From: Candidatus Methylomirabilota bacterium
Lineage (GTDB): Bacteria; Acidobacteriota; Thermoanaerobaculia; Thermoanaerobaculales; Sulfomarinibacteraceae
Direction of reading: 5' to 3'
Assembly (NCBI GenBank): GCA_035464095.1
Contig: DATHSO010000150.1
Span: 56,593-120,592, forward strand
DNA length: 64,000 nucleotides
Shown here: in pieces, positions 20,252 to 52,389 of the stretch
How positions within the stretch are numbered: position 1 is the stretch's first letter
Layout of the letters: every line of letters begins with the position of its first letter
Made by a program: the position numbers and the translations under genes
The notes under the pieces: generated by a model
Told to the model about the DNA's origin: nothing
Seen by the model: only the letters and a program-made list of their open reading frames with translations
Database searches by the model: none

Positions 20252-20450
20252 TGCAGTGGCAGTTCCAGCGGCCGTGAACGATCGCCCGCGCCGGAGCGGG
20301 CGTCTCACCTCGATCCCGATCCCGGTCCCGATCCCGGTCCCGAACGGCCCGGGTCCGGGTTCGAGTCCGGTTGCTGCCGCTACCCCTGCCGATGCCACTG
20401 AATCTGATACTGCCACTGAGTCTGCCACTGTCACTGCCGCTGTCTCCTGC
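20252..20450. repeat. left repeat complex of the four-helix-bundle cassette (element E2)
   Basis: GCAGTGGCAGT fragment 20252..20262; 19-mer GTGAACGATCGCCCGCGCC 20274..20292; (GATCCC/GGTCCC)x5 20312..20342; degenerate CTGCCR units 20373..20450. Confidence 0.85.
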
Positions 20451-20586
20451 TACGGCCCCGCCGGCATGATCACCTCCGGGCCGTTCCTGGCGGCGGTGGT
20501 AGTCGCCGGGACGTTCCGCGTCATGGGCGCCCGACCACCCGACCTCCCTTGACCCGGAACGCCCCGGCGACTCGGGGGAGAGGGCC

Positions 20587-20955
20587 ATGAACGACCCGGA
20601 GGTGACCATGCACGACAACCGATCCGGCAACGAGCTCACCGCCCACCGCAAGGCCGTCGAGGCCGCGGGTATCGCCATCAGCCTCGTCCCACGGCTACCC
20701 GCCCATCTCAGGAGCCTCGCCGACCAGGTTGTCCGGTCCGCCTCGTCGGTGGCCGCCAACCTCGCCGAGGGCCAGGGCCGATTCGGGAAGGACCGCGCTT
20801 ACCATTGGCGCATCGCGTACGGCTCCGCTCGAGAGGTCGACACCCATCTCAGGCTCCTGATCGGTGCGGGTGCCGCCGATCGAGCCCTGACCGCGATCAG
20901 CCTCTTCGACGAAGTGCGAGCCATGACCTGGCGGTTGCTCCATCCCCAGCTCTGA
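20587..20955 (+). CDS. four-helix-bundle protein (23S rRNA intervening-sequence protein family; Avd-like)
   Basis: Motifs QVVRSASSVAANLAEGQGR and RIAYGSAREVDTHLRLL match the family signature (R.A.S...NIAEG..R; A.GS..E..T.L). SD GGGGAGAGG lies upstream. Confidence 0.8.
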   Translation: MNDPEVTMHDNRSGNELTAHRKAVEAAGIAISLVPRLPAHLRSLADQVVRSASSVAANLAEGQGRFGKDRAYHWRIAYGSAREVDTHLRLLIGAGAADRALTAISLFDEVRAMTWRLLHPQL

Positions 20956-20978
20956 CGCGGCCTGGTCGGCGTGCCGCA

Positions 20979-21003
20979 TTGTGGGGCCGGCGGCTCGCCG
21001 GCC
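20979..21003 (+). other. conserved 25-nt motif with 8-bp GC stem-loop downstream of the four-helix-bundle ORF
   Basis: TTGTGGGGCCGGCGGCTCGCCGGCC is identical to 45424..45448. Stem GGCCGGCG / CGCCGGCC with a 3-nt loop and no U-tract. Confidence 0.85.
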
Positions 21004-21025
21004 TCGCCCGGGCGTTCCGGACCTT

Positions 21026-21136
21026 AGTGACAGTCACAGTGGCAGTGCCAGTGGCAGTGGCAGTGGCAGTGGCAGTGAACAGTCGCCCGCGCCGCTGCCG
21101 CCGTCCACCTCTCCCACTCCTTCTCGCTCTCCCTCG
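21026..21136. repeat. right repeat complex of the four-helix-bundle cassette (element E2)
   Basis: (AGTGAC/AGTGGC)x~9 at 21026..21077 is the reverse complement of the CTGCCA unit. It is followed by the 19-mer GTGAACAGTCGCCCGCGCC 21075..21093 and a CT-rich run 21103..21136. Confidence 0.9.
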
Positions 21137-32866: not shown

Positions 32867-32971
32867 CCCCTCTCCTTCTCTCTCTCCCTCTCCCTTTCCG
32901 TCTCCCTTCGCGGGCGGGCTGGTTATCGCAAGGGAGAGGGAGAGAGAGAAGGAGAAGGAGCGGGAGAGGGG
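32867..32971. repeat. CT-rich / GA-rich inverted-repeat hairpin (element E3)
   Basis: Left arm CCCCTCTCCTTCTCTCTCTCCCTCTCCCTTTCCGTCTCCCT 32867..32907 and right arm AGGGAGAGGGAGAGAGAGAAGGAGAAGGAGCGGGAGAGGGG 32931..32971. The 23-nt loop contains TTATCGCAAGG. Confidence 0.9.
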
Positions 32972-40157: not shown

Positions 40158-40196
40158 GCATTCTACCACCAGCGCTTCGCGCGGGTGGTAGAATGC
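40158..40196. repeat. 12-bp perfect hairpin with 15-nt loop
   Basis: GCATTCTACCAC ... GTGGTAGAATGC. Each arm contains TAGAAT/ATTCTA, a possible -10 element for the minus-strand COG2403 gene. Confidence 0.8.
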
Positions 40197-40205
40197 TAAA
40201 TTCTC

Positions 40206-40318
40206 AATTATGAATTATGAATTATGAATTACATCGCAAGGGCGGCGACGTCTTCGAGAGCAGTTCACAGGATCAGTGCCCGCCATTCATAATTCATAAT
40301 TCAAAATTCATAATTCAC
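40206..40318. repeat. AT-rich heptamer foldback (element E4)
   Basis: (AATTATG)x3.9 at 40206..40232 and its complement (CATAATT-type)x~5 at 40285..40318 flank a 52-nt GC-rich core. Strong AT island in a GC-rich genome. Confidence 0.9.
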
Positions 40319-41916: not shown

Positions 41917-42536
41917 GGGTTTTAACCGCGAAGACGCAAAGATCGCGAAGCCATCGCAGACATCGCATTGTTAACGCAGAGGCGCAGAGACATCGCAGAC
42001 ATCACAGCTCAACGCAAAGGCGCCAAGGCGCAAAGACGCAAAGACATCGCAGCCATCGCAGGGAGTGTGGGCGGCGGAGTCGGCGGCGGTTCGGAACCGC
42101 CGCCACCGCGACGGCGTGCGTCCGATCCGAACACGGGTGTTCGTCCCGGCCGCATGCCGTCCCGGCCCGCTGTGCTCGGAGCACAGCGGCTCCGCCTCGG
42201 TGACACGTTGCCTTCACGTCATGCCGAGTCGGGCGTCCCGGGCCTGTCGAATCCTCGGGGAGCCCTCGGAGATCGACCTTCGGGGAATGCCAACCCGGAC
42301 CTCAGTGCCGCACCGTCGGGCCTCACTCCGGACCGCGGGAGAGCGACGCACCGTCGACCGTCAGACCCGCACGCTCCCGAGCTGCGATGCCCTCGGCACC
42401 ACTGCGTAGGTCTGCGATGGGCCAGAAATGCGATGGTGCGATGGCTCTGCGGCTCTGAGCCTCTGCGTTGAAAATGCGATGTGCGCGATGACCTTGTGAT
42501 GTCTTCGCGTTCTCCGCGTCTTCGCGGTTCAACCCC
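41917..42536. repeat. ~620-bp foldback element with ~150-nt word-repeat inverted arms (element E6)
   Basis: Left arm 41917..42063 and right arm ~42382..42536 are imperfect reverse complements built from the words CGCGAAG, CCATCGCAG, GCGCAGAG and ACGCAAAG. Termini are GGGTTTTAACCGCGAAGACGC / GCGTCTTCGCGGTTCAACCCC. Confidence 0.85.
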
Positions 42537-43361: not shown

Positions 43362-45062
43362 ATGGAGACTCCAGAGCGGATTGGCAAGTACGAGGTCCGG
43401 TCGCAGATCGCGGCCGGCGGCTTCGGGGTCATCTTCAAGGGCTGGGACCCCTTCATCAAGCGCCCGGTCGCCATCAAGATGTGCGCCTCCCCCGACGAGG
43501 AGGTCCGCCAGCGCTTCCAGCAGGAGGCCCAGTTCGTCGGCAACCTGGTCCACCGCAACATCACCCTCGTCTTCGACTTCGGGGTCGAGGGCGGGATTCC
43601 CTACATCGTCCAGGAGTTTCTCACCGGCTACGACCTCGACCAGCTGGTCAAGGCCGGGGTCGTGGACGACACCAGGACCGTGACCTCGATCCTCCTCCAG
43701 GTCTGCGAGGGCCTCGACTTCGCCCACCAGCGGGGGATCGTCCACCGCGACATCAAGCCCTCCAACATCCGGGTCCTCGAGGATGGGACCGTCAAGATCA
43801 TGGACTTCGGCATCGCCAAGTCCCTGGAAGGCTCGACCAAGCTCACCCAGACCGGCATCGCCCTCGGCACCGCCGGCTACCTCGCGCCCGAGCAGATCCA
43901 GGGCGGGACGGTGGACCCCCGCACGGACATCTTCGCCCTCGGCGTGGTCGCCTACGAGCTGGTGACCGGGGAGCGCCCGTTTCACGGCACGTCCCTGTCC
44001 AACGTCCTCTACCAGATCCTCAACGACGAGCCGCGGAGGCCGTCCGAGGTCATGCCCGGGATTTCGCCGGAGCTCCAGGACGTGGTCGTGCGCTGCATGG
44101 CGAAGGCCCCCGCCAACCGCTACCAGAGCGCCCGCGAGGTCTTCCAGGCCCTGCGCGCCGTGCCCGGAGCCGGTCCGGACGACGGCGAGTCGACGGTCGA
44201 GGCCACCACCGGAGTGCTCCGGGTGGCGATGGCCAACATGGCGCCGGTCGTCAGCCACGAGGAGCCTCCGACCCGCGACCTCTCGGGCGCCGGGGTCGAC
44301 GCCGACGCCACCGTGCAGGTCGACTCGGGAAGCTCGGTGACCGAGCTCTCCCGCTCCCCGGACATCGAGGAGGAGAACAAGGACCGGCGCAATCCCGTGT
44401 TCGTGATCTTCCTGCTCCTGCTCGGGGTAGTGATCGCCGCCGGCGCGGCGCTGTACCTGTCCCGCGACGTGCAGGACCTGGTCTTCGGGCCGGAGGGTGC
44501 GCCCTGGCTGCCCACCGCCACCCCGACCCCCACCGCCACCGCCACCCCCACCGAGGTGCCGACCCGCACCCCCACCCCGACCGTCACCGAGACGCCGGCG
44601 CCCGAGCCCACGCCGACGCCGGCGCCGGTGACGGTCCGCCTGCACGTGGACCCGCCCGCCTCGGTGACCGTGGACGGCCGTCCCTTCAACGGCGGCGACA
44701 AGACCAACGGCGGCACCATCGCTCTGCTGCCCGGGCCCCACACCTTCACGGTGTCGGTCCCCGACTTCCCCGCCCGCACCTTCACCCGCACCGTCGACCC
44801 GGCGACCCGGACCATCGTGCTCAACCTGGATCTCGGACTGCTGACGGTGATGATCGACCCCGCGGTCCGCCTGCCGGGTGGCGAGGCCTTCCTGGACGGC
44901 GACTCCATCGGCGCCCTGCCCCTGATCCGTCGCAAGGTGGAGGCCGGGGAGCACGAGCTCGTGGTGAGGTGGCCGGGGGCGGACGCACCGTTCAGGCGGC
45001 GCATCACCGTACCGCCGGCGCCGGCGGAGCTGCGGCTCACAGTGGCGCCGGGGGGGGCGTGA
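43362..45062 (+). CDS. Ser/Thr protein kinase with TM segment and PEGA-like C-terminal domain
   Basis: Motifs IAAGGFGVIFKG, VAIK, HRDIKPSNI, DFGIAK and GTAGYLAPE. TM segment VFVIFLLLLGVVIAAGAALY. Confidence 0.88.
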   Translation: METPERIGKYEVRSQIAAGGFGVIFKGWDPFIKRPVAIKMCASPDEEVRQRFQQEAQFVGNLVHRNITLVFDFGVEGGIPYIVQEFLTGYDLDQLVKAGVVDDTRTVTSILLQVCEGLDFAHQRGIVHRDIKPSNIRVLEDGTVKIMDFGIAKSLEGSTKLTQTGIALGTAGYLAPEQIQGGTVDPRTDIFALGVVAYELVTGERPFHGTSLSNVLYQILNDEPRRPSEVMPGISPELQDVVVRCMAKAPANRYQSAREVFQALRAVPGAGPDDGESTVEATTGVLRVAMANMAPVVSHEEPPTRDLSGAGVDADATVQVDSGSSVTELSRSPDIEEENKDRRNPVFVIFLLLLGVVIAAGAALYLSRDVQDLVFGPEGAPWLPTATPTPTATATPTEVPTRTPTPTVTETPAPEPTPTPAPVTVRLHVDPPASVTVDGRPFNGGDKTNGGTIALLPGPHTFTVSVPDFPARTFTRTVDPATRTIVLNLDLGLLTVMIDPAVRLPGGEAFLDGDSIGALPLIRRKVEAGEHELVVRWPGADAPFRRRITVPPAPAELRLTVAPGGA

Positions 45063-45092
45063 GTCATCAGTAGTGAGTGGTGAGTGTCGGAC

Positions 45093-45182
45093 GGTGCCAG
45101 GTACGGCGACTTGACAAACACGCCAAGAACCACGCCACCGCTGCATCGATGACGAGTTTGTCAAGTCGCCGTACCTGGCACC
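45093..45182. repeat. perfect 27-bp inverted repeat with 36-nt loop
   Basis: GGTGCCAGGTACGGCGACTTGACAAAC (45093..45119) and GTTTGTCAAGTCGCCGTACCTGGCACC (45156..45182). The right arm lies within the decayed four-helix-bundle reading frame. Confidence 0.95.
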
Positions 45183-45405
45183 CTCGGAGATCGTCCGATC
45201 CACGGGACCGGGGCACGGGAGGGCCGGGAAGGATCGGGCGTACTACTTCCGCGTCGCCTTCGGCTCCGCGAAGGAGGCCGAGACCCACCTCGGGATTCTG
45301 CTCACTGCCGGTGTTATCGATCGCGGCCAAGCCATTCGCGCCCTCCGGCTCTTCGACGACGTCCGCGCCATGACTTGGAGGCTCCTTCCCCCTCACCCTG
45401 AACTT
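45115..45405 (+). pseudogene. decayed four-helix-bundle (IVS-protein family) gene remnant
   Basis: My frame-1 translation gives ...PSEIVRSTGPGHGRAGKDRAYYFRVAFGSAKEAETHLGILLTAGVIDRGQAIRALRLFDDVRAMTWRLLPPHPEL, colinear with ORF 20587..20955. It has no ATG/GTG/TTG start, a shortened NIAEG region, and an upstream in-frame stop at 45112. Confidence 0.7.
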
Positions 45406-45423
45406 GCGCACCCGGGACGCTCG

Positions 45424-45448
45424 TTGTGGGGCCGGCGGCTCGCCGGCC
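45424..45448 (+). other. second copy of the conserved 25-nt stem-loop motif
   Basis: TTGTGGGGCCGGCGGCTCGCCGGCC, identical to 20979..21003 and in the same position downstream of the four-helix-bundle homology. Confidence 0.85.
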
Positions 45449-45451
45449 AAC

Positions 45452-45665
45452 GGGTGAACGCACCCGGAGCCGGAGCCGGTGCTGGTCGCTGACGCCGGTC
45501 GCTGACGCTGGCGCTGGTTGCTGCCCCTGATCGCTGGCGCTGATCGCTGATGCTGATCGCTGATGCTGATCGCTGACAGCTGGTCGCTGTCATCGGGTGC
45601 GGGCACCCGGCTCCGCCTTCGGCTTCGCCGTGCCAAGCGGACGCGGACGCGGACGGGGGAAGGCC
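45452..45665. repeat. right repeat complex of the decayed cassette (element E5)
   Basis: GGTGAACGCACCCGG; (GGAGCC)x2; GCTGGTCGCTGAC/GCTGATCGCTGAT units 45481..45592; GCACCCGGCTCC; (GGACGC)x3 45638..45657; GGGGGAAGGCCGGG. Confidence 0.85.
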
Positions 45666-45708
45666 GGGCACTTGCGGGGATGGCGTGGTCGTCGGTACAG
45701 TGGTCCGG

Positions 45709-47340
45709 ATGTTGAAAAACAGCCTTCTCGTCCTGTGCCTGTTGTGTGTGTTCGCAGTGGCGGCGCCGGTCTCCGCCCAGGAGAGCGCAGCGACCCCGAG
45801 CGAGGAGGCGGCGATTCAGGCCTTCCGCGAGGGCTCCTTCTCCAGGGCGGTGGAGCTGTATCGCCAGGCCCTTCAGGAGACCGACGACGCCAGCCACCGG
45901 GCCAGGCTCCACATCAACATCGCCTGGACGCTGTTCGCCCTGGGACGGGAGGCGGAGGTCCAGACCCACCTCCGCGCGGCCCTGGTCGAGGACCCGAACC
46001 TGACCCTGCTGCCCGACTACTACACCCAGGAGTTCATGGACCTCTTCGACCAGGCCCGCCGGCGCGGGCTCGAGCCCGGTCCGGCGGTGCCGCCGCCCGA
46101 CCTGGAGTCGACCCTGGCCAGCATCGACGCGCGCATGGCCGCCGGCGAGGACCTGGAGGGCGCCCTCGGCGATCTCGACCGGCTGCTCGAGGCCTACCCC
46201 GCTGACGGACGGCTCATCCCCATGCGATCTGATCTCCTGCGCCGGCTGGGCCGCGACCAGGAGGCCGACGAGCTGCTGCGCACCTACGGCGGCGGGGTCG
46301 GTGCCGGGGCCTACGCCGAGCGGATGTCGATCCCGGACCTGATCCTGCGCGCCAACCGCCTGCTCGACGAGGGAGACAGCACGACCAGCCTCGAGCTGCT
46401 GCGCGAGGCCGTGGCCAGGCAGCCCAGCAACGTCGCGGCCCTCGAGCTCATGGCCGAGGCCGCCCAGCGGGGCGGCCACTGGCAGGAAGCGGAGTTCGCC
46501 CTCAAGTCCGCCCTCGGCATGCAGCCCGGCAACGTCGGCCTGCAGCTGAGGTTGGGCGAGGTCTACCTCGCCGAGAACGAGCTCTCCGCCGCCCGCGATG
46601 TCTTCCGGGAGATCACCGAGGCCTCCCCGCACTCCGACCGCGGCTGGGCGTCCCTCGGCCTGCTCGAGGCCCGCCTCGGCAACCTCGAGCGCGCCCTGGC
46701 CCACCTCGACCGCGCCATCCAGGAGAACCCCCTCCTGCCCGAGGTGCAGCTGGCGCGGGGCGAGCTCCTGCTGCTCGAGGGCAGGGCCGCCGAGGCGGTG
46801 GCGGCCCTCCAGGCGGCCGGCAGCCTGCTCCACGACGACGCCCAGCTCGAGGCCCGGTTGGGTCAGGCCCTCCTCGCAGCCGGGCGGCCCGACGAGGCCC
46901 TGCCGCTGCTCCGGGGCGGCGTGGAGGGGGGATTCGCCAACGACGACGTCAAGCGCGCCCTGGCCCTGGCCCTGGCCCTCAACGGCCTCCACGCCGAGAG
47001 CGAGCGGGTGCTCGCGCGGACCGATGTGGCCGACAACCTGGACTCCGACATCGTTCGCGGCCTGCTGATGCTCGAGCGCTCCAGCCACGCCGCCGCCGAG
47101 GACGTGCTGACGCCGGTGGTCCAGAGCCGCTCCAACGAGGCGCGGGTTCTCAACCTGTTCGCGGCGGTCCTGTACCGGCAGGGCCGCTTCGACGAGGCCG
47201 TGTCGTTCCTGGAGCGGGCCCGGGGCCTCGACCCCGCCGACCCCGCCATCGAGGCCAACCTGGTGGTCGCCCGGGCGGCCCGGGCCGCCGAGGTCCTCGC
47301 TGCCAACGCCGCCACCGTCAAGGCCGCCCCCGACAGCTGA
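45709..47340 (+). CDS. secreted TPR-repeat protein
   Basis: Signal peptide MLKNSLLVLCLLCVFAVAAPVSAQ followed by many TPR-like helical pairs. Confidence 0.75.
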   Translation: MLKNSLLVLCLLCVFAVAAPVSAQESAATPSEEAAIQAFREGSFSRAVELYRQALQETDDASHRARLHINIAWTLFALGREAEVQTHLRAALVEDPNLTLLPDYYTQEFMDLFDQARRRGLEPGPAVPPPDLESTLASIDARMAAGEDLEGALGDLDRLLEAYPADGRLIPMRSDLLRRLGRDQEADELLRTYGGGVGAGAYAERMSIPDLILRANRLLDEGDSTTSLELLREAVARQPSNVAALELMAEAAQRGGHWQEAEFALKSALGMQPGNVGLQLRLGEVYLAENELSAARDVFREITEASPHSDRGWASLGLLEARLGNLERALAHLDRAIQENPLLPEVQLARGELLLLEGRAAEAVAALQAAGSLLHDDAQLEARLGQALLAAGRPDEALPLLRGGVEGGFANDDVKRALALALALNGLHAESERVLARTDVADNLDSDIVRGLLMLERSSHAAAEDVLTPVVQSRSNEARVLNLFAAVLYRQGRFDEAVSFLERARGLDPADPAIEANLVVARAARAAEVLAANAATVKAAPDS

Positions 47341-48619: not shown

Positions 48620-48738
48620 CCTACTTTTTCCCCTCCTTCTTCCTCTCCCCCGGGCGATCCGGAACGCTCGACTGATGACAGTCCGCTGTGAATCCGGGTC
48701 GTGTCTGGGAGAGGAAGAAGGAGAGGAAAAAGGAGAGG
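48620..48738. repeat. CT-rich / GA-rich inverted-repeat hairpin (element E8)
   Basis: Left arm CCTACTTTTTCCCCTCCTTCTTCCTCTCCCCC 48620..48651 and right arm GGGAGAGGAAGAAGGAGAGGAAAAAGGAGAGG 48707..48738. The 55-nt core has its own imperfect IR. Confidence 0.9.
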
Positions 48739-51797: not shown

Positions 51798-52389
51798 ACC
51801 GCGAAGGCGCGAAGGACGCGAAGCCATCGCAGTCATCGCAGAGCCATCGCAGGCATCGCAGGTTGAACCGCAAAGACCGCGAAGAGCGCAACGCAGGGCA
51901 CGCGAAGACATCGCATTTCTGAGCCATCGCAGGCATCGCAGGCGTCGCAATCACGAAGACACCGAGACACGAAGAAATTTGATCGTGGCGGCGGCGGCTC
52001 GCCGGTGGTCGCCGGCGATGCCGATCACGTAACCGTATCCTCCGTAGGCGGGTCGTTGACGACCCGCGACCACCGACGTGGAGGGGGCCGGTGGCGTCGG
52101 TCGAGACCGCGGGCGTCGTGGCCGCGGGGCCTGAAGACCCCGCCTACGGGGAGGGGCTGCCGGGTTCGTGGTGTGGTTGCCGGATCGGCCTTGAGGGGTC
52201 GGGATCGGGACCCTCCTACTTCGTGTGCGACGTCTTCGTGATTTCGTGTTTCAAACTGCGATGGTTGCGATGGCTCATTCCTGCGATGGTGCGATGGACT
52301 CTGCGCCTCTGCGCCTCTGCGCCTCTGCGCTGAATGCGATGGCTGCGATGGCTGCGATGGCTTCGCGTTCTTCGCGTCTTCGCGGTGAC
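51790..52389. repeat. ~600-bp foldback element, same family as 41917..42536 (element E7)
   Basis: Left arm 51790..~51978 starts GGGGTTGAACCGCGAAGGCGCGAAGG. Right arm ~52219..52389 includes (CTCTGCGC)x4 and (GCGATGGCT)x3 and ends GCGTCTTCGCGGTGAC. The arms are imperfect reverse complements. Confidence 0.85.

Follow-up and report, generated by a model that had tools for sequence, protein, structure and literature searches.

A disrupted four-helix-bundle gene cassette within a mosaic intergenic spacer of a Thermoanaerobaculia genome

A dead gene fragment between a kinase gene and a TPR gene

We analysed a 64,000-nucleotide stretch of a genome deposited as Candidatus Methylomirabilota bacterium and placed by GTDB in the Thermoanaerobaculia (contig DATHSO010000150.1; hereafter the window), which has a G+C content of 71%, and focused on the 646-nt spacer that separates a Ser/Thr kinase gene from a TPR gene at about 45 kb. 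This spacer harbours about 380 bases of a dead gene cassette, truncated at a small palindromic insertion. It opens with the stop codon of the kinase gene (TGA, 45060-45062, + strand), followed by a short left flank, TGAGTCATCAGTAGTGAGTGGTG (up to 45086, + strand), that is common to the closest relative. At the other end lie the predicted promoter and start of the TPR gene (45671..45711, + strand), consisting of CTTGCG, 19 nt, TACAGT, 7 nt and the ATG at 45709. The segment 45671-45701 is the only spacer sequence kept down to the 74% relatives, in the form CTTGCG, about 19 nt and TA(C/G)AGT (L093 2962-2995; L096 2960-2995; L numbers denote the loci compared), and is probably the TPR promoter; a consensus promoter scan did not call it. 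Every insertion in the spacer lies upstream of this motif, which marks the right bound of the mosaic described below.

The spacer contains the 3' part of a PF05635 (S23p/Avd-type four-helix-bundle) pseudogene (45184..45401, + strand), recognised by homology and by its lesions. The original prediction, made from the letters of the window alone, had read frame 1 from 45115, which translates to ...FVKSPYLAPSEIVRSTGPGHGRAGKDRAYYFRVAFGSAKEAETHLGILLTAGVIDRGQAIRALRLFDDVRAMTWRLL..., as a colinear homologue of the intact open reading frame (ORF) at 20587..20955. Pairwise protein alignment bears this out: 45184-45405 and ORF 20587-20952 share 41 of 74 residues (55%; BLASTP, E 5e-27), a match that tblastn carries out to residue 38, and at the DNA level the two are 64% identical. 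The profile scores of the fragment (19.8 bits for PF05635 and 19.3 bits for TIGR02436) are under both cut-offs (33.8 and 24), and we assign it to the family not on these scores but on the BLASTP match to the intact copy and on its 65-79% identity to other family members. The fragment corresponds to the C-terminal ~70 residues of the protein; its first codons match G-D-Q-V-I-R-S in helix 2, and helices 3 and 4 follow. Because just the helix-2 tail and these two helices remain, the fragment is unable to form a bundle alone.

Judged from its sequence, the 45-kb copy is a pseudogene, as had been proposed, having lost its start, its motif and its in-frame stop codon. The in-frame stop noted upstream is a TGA at 45112-45114, and the first in-frame ATG, GTG or TTG is met only at 45370. 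The NIAEG segment, already described as shortened, has changed from the conserved ASSVAANLAEG to TGPG, a net loss of 7 codons (a 21-nt deletion). With it the helix-2 motif S-V-x-A-N-x-x-E-G is gone, which is present in the intact copy and whose residues S54, V55, A57, N58, E61 and G62 are invariant across 41 homologues. Finally, a 1-nt deletion near the 3' end of the fragment, overlooked by the original prediction and visible against L092, throws the family stop (TGA, 45399-45401) out of frame. The remnant is probably inert. The third-position G+C content is 0.84 in the intact cassette gene (20587-20955) and 0.78 in the fragment (45184-45405) vs 0.95 in the kinase and TPR genes, and the low values of the cassette genes are consistent with a different evolutionary regime or origin.

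A palindromic element at the 5' break

Exactly at the 5' break of the fragment sits a 92-nt palindromic element (45092..45183, no strand assigned), which had also gone unnoticed in the original prediction. An inverted-repeat search delimited perfect 27-nt terminal inverted repeats, GGTGCCAGGTACGGCGACTTGACAAAC (45093-45119 and 45156-45182), around a 36-nt loop (45120-45155), within a wider inverted repeat (45087-45188) that has 39-nt arms and the 27-nt perfect core. The element has no coding capacity and carries TTGACA in both arms. It is flanked by a candidate target-site duplication, TCGGA, at 45087..45091 (+ strand) and 45184-45188.

A search seeded with the fragment returned other short ORFs with the junction ...SEIVRST-P-HGRAGKDRAY, and their DNA shows the palindrome at the same codon, so that the arrangement is present in the window, L090 and L092. 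The copy at L090 (assembly GCA_035466355.1), which adjoins a patatin gene, still has the first 32 codons of the gene, immediately 5' of the palindrome, so that here the palindrome interrupts the gene. The copy at L092, upstream of a formate/nitrite transporter gene, has lost its N-terminal half, as in the window. The flanking repeats read TCGGA on both sides in the window and L090 and CCGGA/TCGGA in L092, while the intact gene closest to the fragment (L098, 68% identical) has one TCGGG at the equivalent codon position; since all palindrome copies occupy one site, the target-site duplication counts as a single observation. The palindrome ends are 95-100% identical among the three loci vs 70-80% for the adjoining coding DNA. 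Relative to L090 (283-317) and L092 (104-138), the window carries the loop in reverse complement, with arms and flanks in the same orientation, and either an inversion between the arms or an insertion in the opposite orientation would account for this. As a further observation, the right arm of the element is tandemly duplicated in L090 and L092.

The palindrome is foreign to the gene it sits in. We considered whether helix-2 sequence of the gene itself had been duplicated in inverted orientation on the spot, and rejected this because alignment scores equalled those of shuffled queries; likewise, similarity of the arms to 89 four-helix-bundle genes was no greater than in shuffled controls. The window and 540 kb of fetched loci yielded no further copies of the palindrome, and scans of viral contigs for its end were likewise empty. 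When the peptide that palindrome and junction encode was used as a library-wide phmmer query, the one match was a repetitive ORF, judged spurious. The simplest reading is that the palindrome represents a small insertion, similar to a miniature inverted-repeat transposable element (MITE), with a 5-bp target duplication.

Arrival of the remnant in the spacer

We located orthologues of the TPR gene and aligned their upstream spacers to the window. Relatives whose TPR protein is 74-75% identical (L093, L096) have a spacer of about 58 nt that shares with the window only the CTTGCG...TA(G/C)AGT promoter-like motif. At 80% (L006/L007), the spacer measures 185 nt and holds a hairpin with CCCTCT/GGGAGA arms around a short GCTG array. 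At 97% (L004/L005), it measures 487 nt and has the left flank, the GCTG array and the right flank as in the window; the cargo is different, with some 240 nt replacing the palindrome, the fragment and the hairpin. Alignment with these relatives, with which both flanks of the region are colinear, delimits a window-specific segment of about 45083-45461. Spacer growth by accretion is indicated, with the cassette remnant as a recent, lineage-specific arrival. Most likely the remnant was already broken on arrival, because the same broken architecture is present elsewhere. The disrupted allele (palindrome and 21-nt deletion) occurs in at least three unrelated genomic contexts, so an intact ORF is seemingly dispensable for dispersal.

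Stem-loop, array and the reuse of modules

Downstream of the fragment, a GC-rich stem-loop, TTGTGG-GGCCGGCG-GCT-CGCCGGCC (45424..45448, + strand), is identical to the one at 20979-21003, as the original prediction had stated. These are the sole two copies of the 25-nt sequence TTGTGGGGCCGGCGGCTCGCCGGCC in the window, where none is expected by chance. Comparing substitutions in ORF and flank, we found 25/25 matches in the hairpin vs 64% DNA identity in the ORF (P about 1.6e-5 per position); purifying selection is no likelier a source of this identity than gene conversion or a recent exchange of modules. One-mismatch variants occur in L001, L003 and L089. An exact-pattern scan of 185,579 species genomes, whose representatives do not include the source genome, gave 0 matches, which limits the hairpin to this lineage. 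In metagenomes, the pattern matched at one locus, L089. A shortened pattern matched once in viral contigs, in a different sequence context, and we put this match down to chance. At L089 the hairpin lies within a cassette that has CGCGAAG/CATCGCAG arms, no four-helix-bundle ORF and a cargo 79% identical to window positions 42029-42228; because it also occurs in this ORF-less setting, the hairpin behaves as an independent module.

The window-specific segment ends with AACGGGTGAACGC (45449..45461, + strand), whose GTGAAC resembles the closing motif of the intact unit's arm, GTGAAC(A/G)(G/A)TCGCC; the boundary motif GTGAAC(A/G)(G/A)TCGC has 3 matches vs 1.9 expected and is not significant alone. 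Beyond it, the long array described earlier was recovered as a CTG-periodic GCTGRTC/GCTGAY array (45481..45592, + strand; period 13 (6+7), 6.9 copies, 82% matches), and its predicted GCACCCGG/GGAGCC and GCACCCGG/GGCTCC flanks proved to be inverted repeats: a left arm, CGGGTGAACGCACCCGGAGCCGGAGCCGG, at 45451..45479 and a right arm, CGGGTGCGGGCACCCGGCTCCGCCTTCGGCTTCG, at 45594..45627, which is kept in L004 and L005. The array is of the family-typical type found downstream of four-helix-bundle genes. It is near-identical but of other length in L004 and L005, and a short version occurs in L006 and L007. Because array and GCACCCGG flanks are nearly identical in the cassette-free L004/L005, the array is resident in this locus and not the cassette's own, contrary to the view that the cassette had kept its repeat arm; its presence in cassette-free relatives had been missed. 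The CATCAG within the left flank TGAGTCATCAGTAGTGAGTGGTG has weak complementarity to the CTGATG units of the array, pairs with the array end in the minimum-free-energy fold of the region and may be a vestigial CAG-type arm.

Since the window holds further repeat-arm hairpins (2699-2860, 32867-32971, 40191-40316, 41917-42536, 48621-48735 and 51798-52386), we describe the spacers of this genome as mosaics of arms, hairpins and cargo, similar in concept to bacterial interspersed mosaic elements (BIMEs). Their arms are inverted short tandem repeats whose unit varies by site (CTGCCA, CCCTCT, AATTATG, CGCGAAG/CATCGCAG, CCTCTCC), and the loops enclosed range from 21 to about 500 nt; the hairpins at 41.9 kb and 51.8 kb have a common arm type. 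Hairpins that have such repeat arms but no ORF are common in the window. At L003 (9420-9660), a CTG-type and a CAG-type arm surround nothing but the 3' half of the GC hairpin and TTGCCCGGGCGTTCC; this is an internally deleted, ORF-less cassette remnant in tandem with an intact cassette.

The intact cassette and its structured leader

The comparator for the remnant is the intact cassette at 20380..21105 (+ strand), which comprises arms, leader, ORF, stem-loop and the closing GTGAACAGTCGCC. A CTG-type left arm (20380-20444), which pairs with the CAG arm, is followed by a leader (20463-20611), the ORF (20587-20955), the stem-loop (20979-21003, 24 nt downstream of the ORF) and the CAG-type right arm (21026-21077), which precedes GTGAACAGTCGCC. 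Over about 50 nt, 73-83% of the positions in the two arms are complementary, and the minimum-free-energy fold joins the arms into a stem around the gene (z = -5.1). A 52-nt direct repeat, 81% identical, brackets this cassette (20253-20304 and 21054-21105); it consists of the CAG-arm end and GTGAAC(A/G)(G/A)TCGCCCGCGCC, is longer in L001 (9640-9720, 10490-10560), and could represent units in tandem or a long stretch duplicated when the cassette inserted.

The protein encoded by 20587-20952 scores 51 bits with PF05635 (cut-off 33.8) and 55.3 bits with TIGR02436 (cut-off 24). Its AlphaFold model (pLDDT 88) has helices at residues 14-32, 39-63, 67-93 and 99-118, and the best structural matches are 2gsc (XCC0516), 2rld (BT_0352) and the Avd proteins of diversity-generating retroelements (DGRs; 4dwl, 8ub7), with TM scores of 0.7-0.8; against 2gsc, TM is 0.78-0.82 and rmsd 1.6. 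Sequence matches in the PDB to designer PPR proteins were set aside as repeat-summing artefacts, leaving 2gsc as the only meaningful one.

A two-stem leader is common to all intact copies. Its outer stem (in the window 20464-20491/20584-20611), CATGGTCACCTCCGGGTCGTT...AACGACCCGGAGGTGACCATG, has 21-23 bp, and its 3' half coincides with the annotated first eight codons (MNDPEVTM). The inner hairpin (20501-20527/20546-20572) has about 22 bp and a conserved tip, GTCAAGG...CCTTGAC. Both candidate start codons and the Shine-Dalgarno sequence, GGAGGTGA, are base-paired within the outer stem; because GGAGGTGA sits five bases before the second ATG (20608), the latter is probably the true start, and the annotated MNDPEVTM codons probably represent RNA structure rather than coding sequence. 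By this pairing, the leader is predicted to hide the ribosome-binding site. The leader covaries strongly: across 38 sequences (the window and 37 loci), 93.7% of cells are paired, 19 of 43 pairs have changed on both sides, and compensatory cells number 106 vs 23.5 in shuffles and 10-16 with slid partners. The two-stem leader has no counterpart among Rfam families. Separately, comparison of L090 (120-160) with L001 (9890-10030) shows that everything between the halves of the outer stem has been precisely deleted in L090, leaving a short perfect palindrome, CATGGTCACC CGGA GGTGACCATG.

The covarying 5' leader is the best-supported structured part of the family. The window holds one leader, that at 20463-20611, and the 45-kb copy has none: upstream arm, leader and helices 1-2 are all absent upstream of the palindrome. 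The original prediction had the non-coding parts well kept at 45 kb, which does not hold for the leader and the upstream arm.

A multicopy cassette family

The search for more copies that the original prediction had called for yielded 159 confirmed relatives in the genome collection and more than 3,000 metagenome relatives of the protein at ≥68% identity. Among the best 80 loci, 22 come from one Candidatus Sulfomarinibacteraceae metagenome-assembled genome (MAG), and two other MAGs contribute 9-11 each. In these acidobacteria, genomes hold the hairpin-flanked cassettes by the dozen. When about 85 copies are combined, CAG periodicity peaks upstream of the ORF (-250 to -150) and CTG periodicity in the first 100 nt downstream (0 to +100), each at about five times background. 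The intact window copy and its close relatives have the reversed polarity, CTG upstream and CAG downstream, with arms that are still complementary. Among these relatives, L001 is syntenic with the 20-kb locus of the window and its protein is 96% identical; the gene at L003 is 93% identical, has other surroundings and follows a CTG/CAG arm pair. As a cassette part, the GC-rich 3' hairpin is limited to this lineage.

Explanations for the mosaic

We consider it probable, though well short of certain, that the region is a lineage-specific mosaic lying between the kinase stop and the TPR promoter, with a core consisting of a dead cassette broken by the palindrome. The mosaic core (about 45087-45461) would be one dead copy from a cassette family that has multiplied greatly. 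Intact members have four parts: the PF05635 gene, the covarying leader, the complementary CAG/CTG arms, which can close a long stem around the gene, and the GC-rich 3' hairpin particular to the lineage. The 45-kb copy would have been inactivated by the 92-nt palindrome in helix 2, with its 5-bp repeats and the linked 21-nt deletion, and a later 1-nt deletion would have removed the stop codon. The segment would then have arrived already broken and would not be translated here. Its movement might be independent of the cassette's own protein and take place at the nucleic-acid level, either with the help of a factor acting in trans or because modules of the hairpin and short-repeat kinds recombine or allow template switching. 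If the region is transcribed as the 3' untranslated region (UTR) of the kinase, its hairpins would be at most passive terminator or stabiliser structures, and by analogy the long stems of intact copies might be RNase III substrates, as in the intervening sequences (IVS) of rRNA.

Several observations weigh against this explanation. The three palindrome copies share one intragenic site, so that the target-site duplication rests on a single case and the palindrome is no more than a candidate mobile element. The short flank unique to the disrupted allele is far less conserved in L092 than the palindrome, which speaks against a simple single origin. Neither a transposase nor a recombinase nor a reverse transcriptase was found linked to the cassettes. 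Arm complementarity within a locus is merely slightly above that between loci (pairing energy -160.6 for own vs -151.6 kcal/mol for cross pairs; Wilcoxon P = 9e-4; expected direction in 49/77 loci). We did not retain cassette-specific matching of the two arms, since the effect is weak and any CAG array pairs with any CTG array.

The remaining objection concerns the ratio of non-synonymous to synonymous substitution rates (dN/dS), which is below 1 among the truncated copies. For the window vs L092, the final 58 codons give 0.20, from 17.8 non-synonymous and 22.2 synonymous changes (binomial P = 1.2e-4 for a ratio below 1), and for the other disrupted pairs 0.34-0.50. Such low values would be unexpected had the copies diverged only after a single disruption, yet the palindrome and linked 21-nt deletion, common to the four disrupted copies, argue for one origin. 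In its 3' half, L090 stands near L001 from the same genome (dS 0.27), and its N-terminal part resembles another subfamily, which indicates frequent recombination among paralogues. We tentatively favour that homologous parts were converted by intact paralogues, importing selected variation into dead copies.

The same ratios (dN/dS 0.2-0.5) could also mean that palindrome and half-gene form a functional unit, in which the palindrome provides signals and a two-helix protein (helices 3 and 4) is made that may interact with full-length pentamers, the window copy having been inactivated recently. We regard this as unlikely, although about 70 codons stay open in four independent copies, gene callers place starts in L090 (GTG) and L092 (ATG), and the palindrome is unusually conserved, with TTGACA in both arms. 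The start codons, however, differ between copies; in the window copy the start is missing and the stop is out of frame, the family's invariant motif is deleted, the promoter scan was empty, and conversion by intact paralogues also gives low dN/dS.

We see no better prospects for an explanation by host use, which is compatible with the mosaic reading: the palindrome and GC hairpin would now serve as a terminator or 3'-UTR stabiliser for the kinase, or would insulate the TPR promoter. Stop codon and promoter bound the mosaic exactly, repeat-arm hairpins take like positions in other convergent or tandem gene pairs of the window, and the region folds more stably than shuffles (z = -3.3). Yet close relatives manage without these modules, neither hairpin is followed by a U-tract, and the turnover of cargo between near-identical strains speaks against a specific requirement.

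The view of the original prediction, in which an ancestral resident cassette decayed in place while selection at the RNA level kept its hairpin and repeat arm, fares worse and strikes us as quite improbable. The perfect identity of the hairpins beside ORFs at 64% and the family-typical array downstream would fit it, but it is disfavoured by synteny, as the cassette is absent from the orthologous spacers of the 97%, 80% and 74-75% relatives, the array is found in relatives without the cassette, and the same broken architecture recurs at other loci. That structured flanks, and not only the protein, are the propagating unit stands in part: the hairpin is reused, ORF-less hairpins occur and broken copies disperse, whereas the array is not the cassette's and the leader is missing. 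Conservation and reuse of modules beyond the ORF, and the continued dispersal of dead copies, are the part of that view that holds. An artefact of assembly or binning, for instance repeats joined into a chimera, would be conceivable in a repeat-rich region of what is probably a metagenome assembly; it is very improbable given that the same palindrome-fragment junction occurs in independent assemblies (NCBI GCA_035466355.1, ENA, JGI) and that both flanks are colinear with relatives.

Relation to known systems

ORFs of the S23p family (PF05635) are known from the 23S rRNA IVS of Coxiella burnetii, Leptospira and others. The layout of the intact cassette matches that of such an IVS, in which an S23p ORF lies in the loop of a terminal-repeat stem, with the difference that the cassettes are placed in intergenic spacers. 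Likeness extends to short tandem repeats of variable number upstream, a ribosome-binding region that is part of a structure, and an ORF prone to loss. In Coxiella, 28-bp terminal repeats form a stem whose loop carries the S23p ORF, and the element is cut out by RNase III; variable-number heptamer repeats are found just upstream of the ORF, which is undergoing reduction, and the authors proposed that the RNA matters more than the protein (PMC4990558). Unlike the IVS, which sit inside a 23S rRNA helix (25 or 45), the cassettes lie in spacers between protein genes, with no Rfam rRNA in the window, occur in dozens of copies per genome with a conserved two-stem leader, and have arms that are 50-100 nt hexamer/heptamer CAG/CTG arrays rather than a unique 28-bp repeat. 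The intact cassette has the terminal-repeat stem, whereas the 45-kb copy, missing its upstream arm, does not.

The cassette protein shares fold and Pfam clan with Avd of DGRs (4dwl and 8ub7, TM 0.7-0.8). Avd is a partner of nucleic acid and reverse transcriptase, which makes an RNA-linked role plausible for the cassette protein; its sequence identity to Avd, however, is about 11%, and no template/variable repeat pair lies beside any cassette examined. No member of the reverse-transcriptase Pfam families was found beside the cassettes L001, L003, L090 and L092 or in the cassette-free L004-L008, the whole window not having been scanned gene by gene.

MITEs, the Correia elements of Neisseria and the repetitive extragenic palindrome (REP)/BIME mosaics of enterobacteria are palindromic intergenic repeats. 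The 92-nt element resembles MITEs and Correia elements in its perfect terminal inverted repeats, its non-coding nature, its short direct repeats and its RNA hairpin. It differs from them in being known here from a single intragenic target inside a cassette gene, and neither a REP-associated tyrosine transposase (RAYT) nor an insertion-sequence (IS) transposase was identified. The whole spacer resembles a BIME in being a mosaic of reusable palindromic and repeat modules, but its arm modules are simple-sequence arrays and not fixed units like REPs. Similarly, integron cassettes with their attC sites are small, mostly promoter-less ORFs with imperfect, hairpin-folding inverted repeats, and empty or degraded ones occur; the cassettes here are single and dispersed, with arms flanking the ORF instead of one 3' attC, no integrase beside the cassettes examined and no evident R'/R'' core sites. 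Eukaryotic foldback elements, too, have long inverted arms of short tandem repeats around a variable centre, but they are far larger, and the resemblance is architectural, with no relationship implied.

Searches of the window and region against other collections were negative: Rfam gave zero matches in the whole window at the gathering threshold and merely sub-threshold microRNA-hairpin look-alikes with permissive thresholds, PADLOC defence models had no match, and BLAST of the region against plasmids matched the simple-repeat array and nothing else. A literature search by family names, incomplete in coverage and working by word matching only, returned no paper on such dispersed cassettes.

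As a tentative joint reading, which we hold to be possible but doubtful, the PF05635 cassettes of Thermoanaerobaculia could be a dispersed, non-ribosomal counterpart of the rRNA IVS. They would settle in the short-repeat hairpin loops of spacers, carry a leader that hides the ribosome-binding site, be copied or exchanged at the nucleic-acid level without their own protein, so that dead copies still spread, and be parasitised by a palindrome that targets helix 2. To our knowledge, the role of S23p-type proteins and the origin and movement of the rRNA IVS have been unclear for some 30 years, partly because there are only one or few rRNA copies per genome to compare. Dozens of copies per genome offer presence or absence and swaps of cargo among near-identical strains, intact copies beside broken ones and a covarying leader for comparison. 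They make testable whether RNase III cuts the stems, whether translation is silenced, whether the protein binds the CTG/CAG arrays and whether propagation needs it. For annotation, much of the spacer 'junk' in these high-GC genomes turns out to be organised, a mosaic built from modules that are used again and again.

Minor observations

Near-identical members of the family are labelled as MAGs of Methylomirabilota, Deinococcales, 'Chondromyces sp.', Thermoanaerobaculia and Holophagae. These mixed source labels could reflect mis-binning of repeat-rich short contigs or horizontal spread. In the MAG Ust_16, diverged four-helix-bundle genes form tail-to-tail pairs (L011, L012 and L077) with one shared terminator-like hairpin between their stops, and L074 of the same MAG has only a weak second match on the opposite strand. 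These tail-to-tail pairs are unlike the single cassettes found elsewhere.

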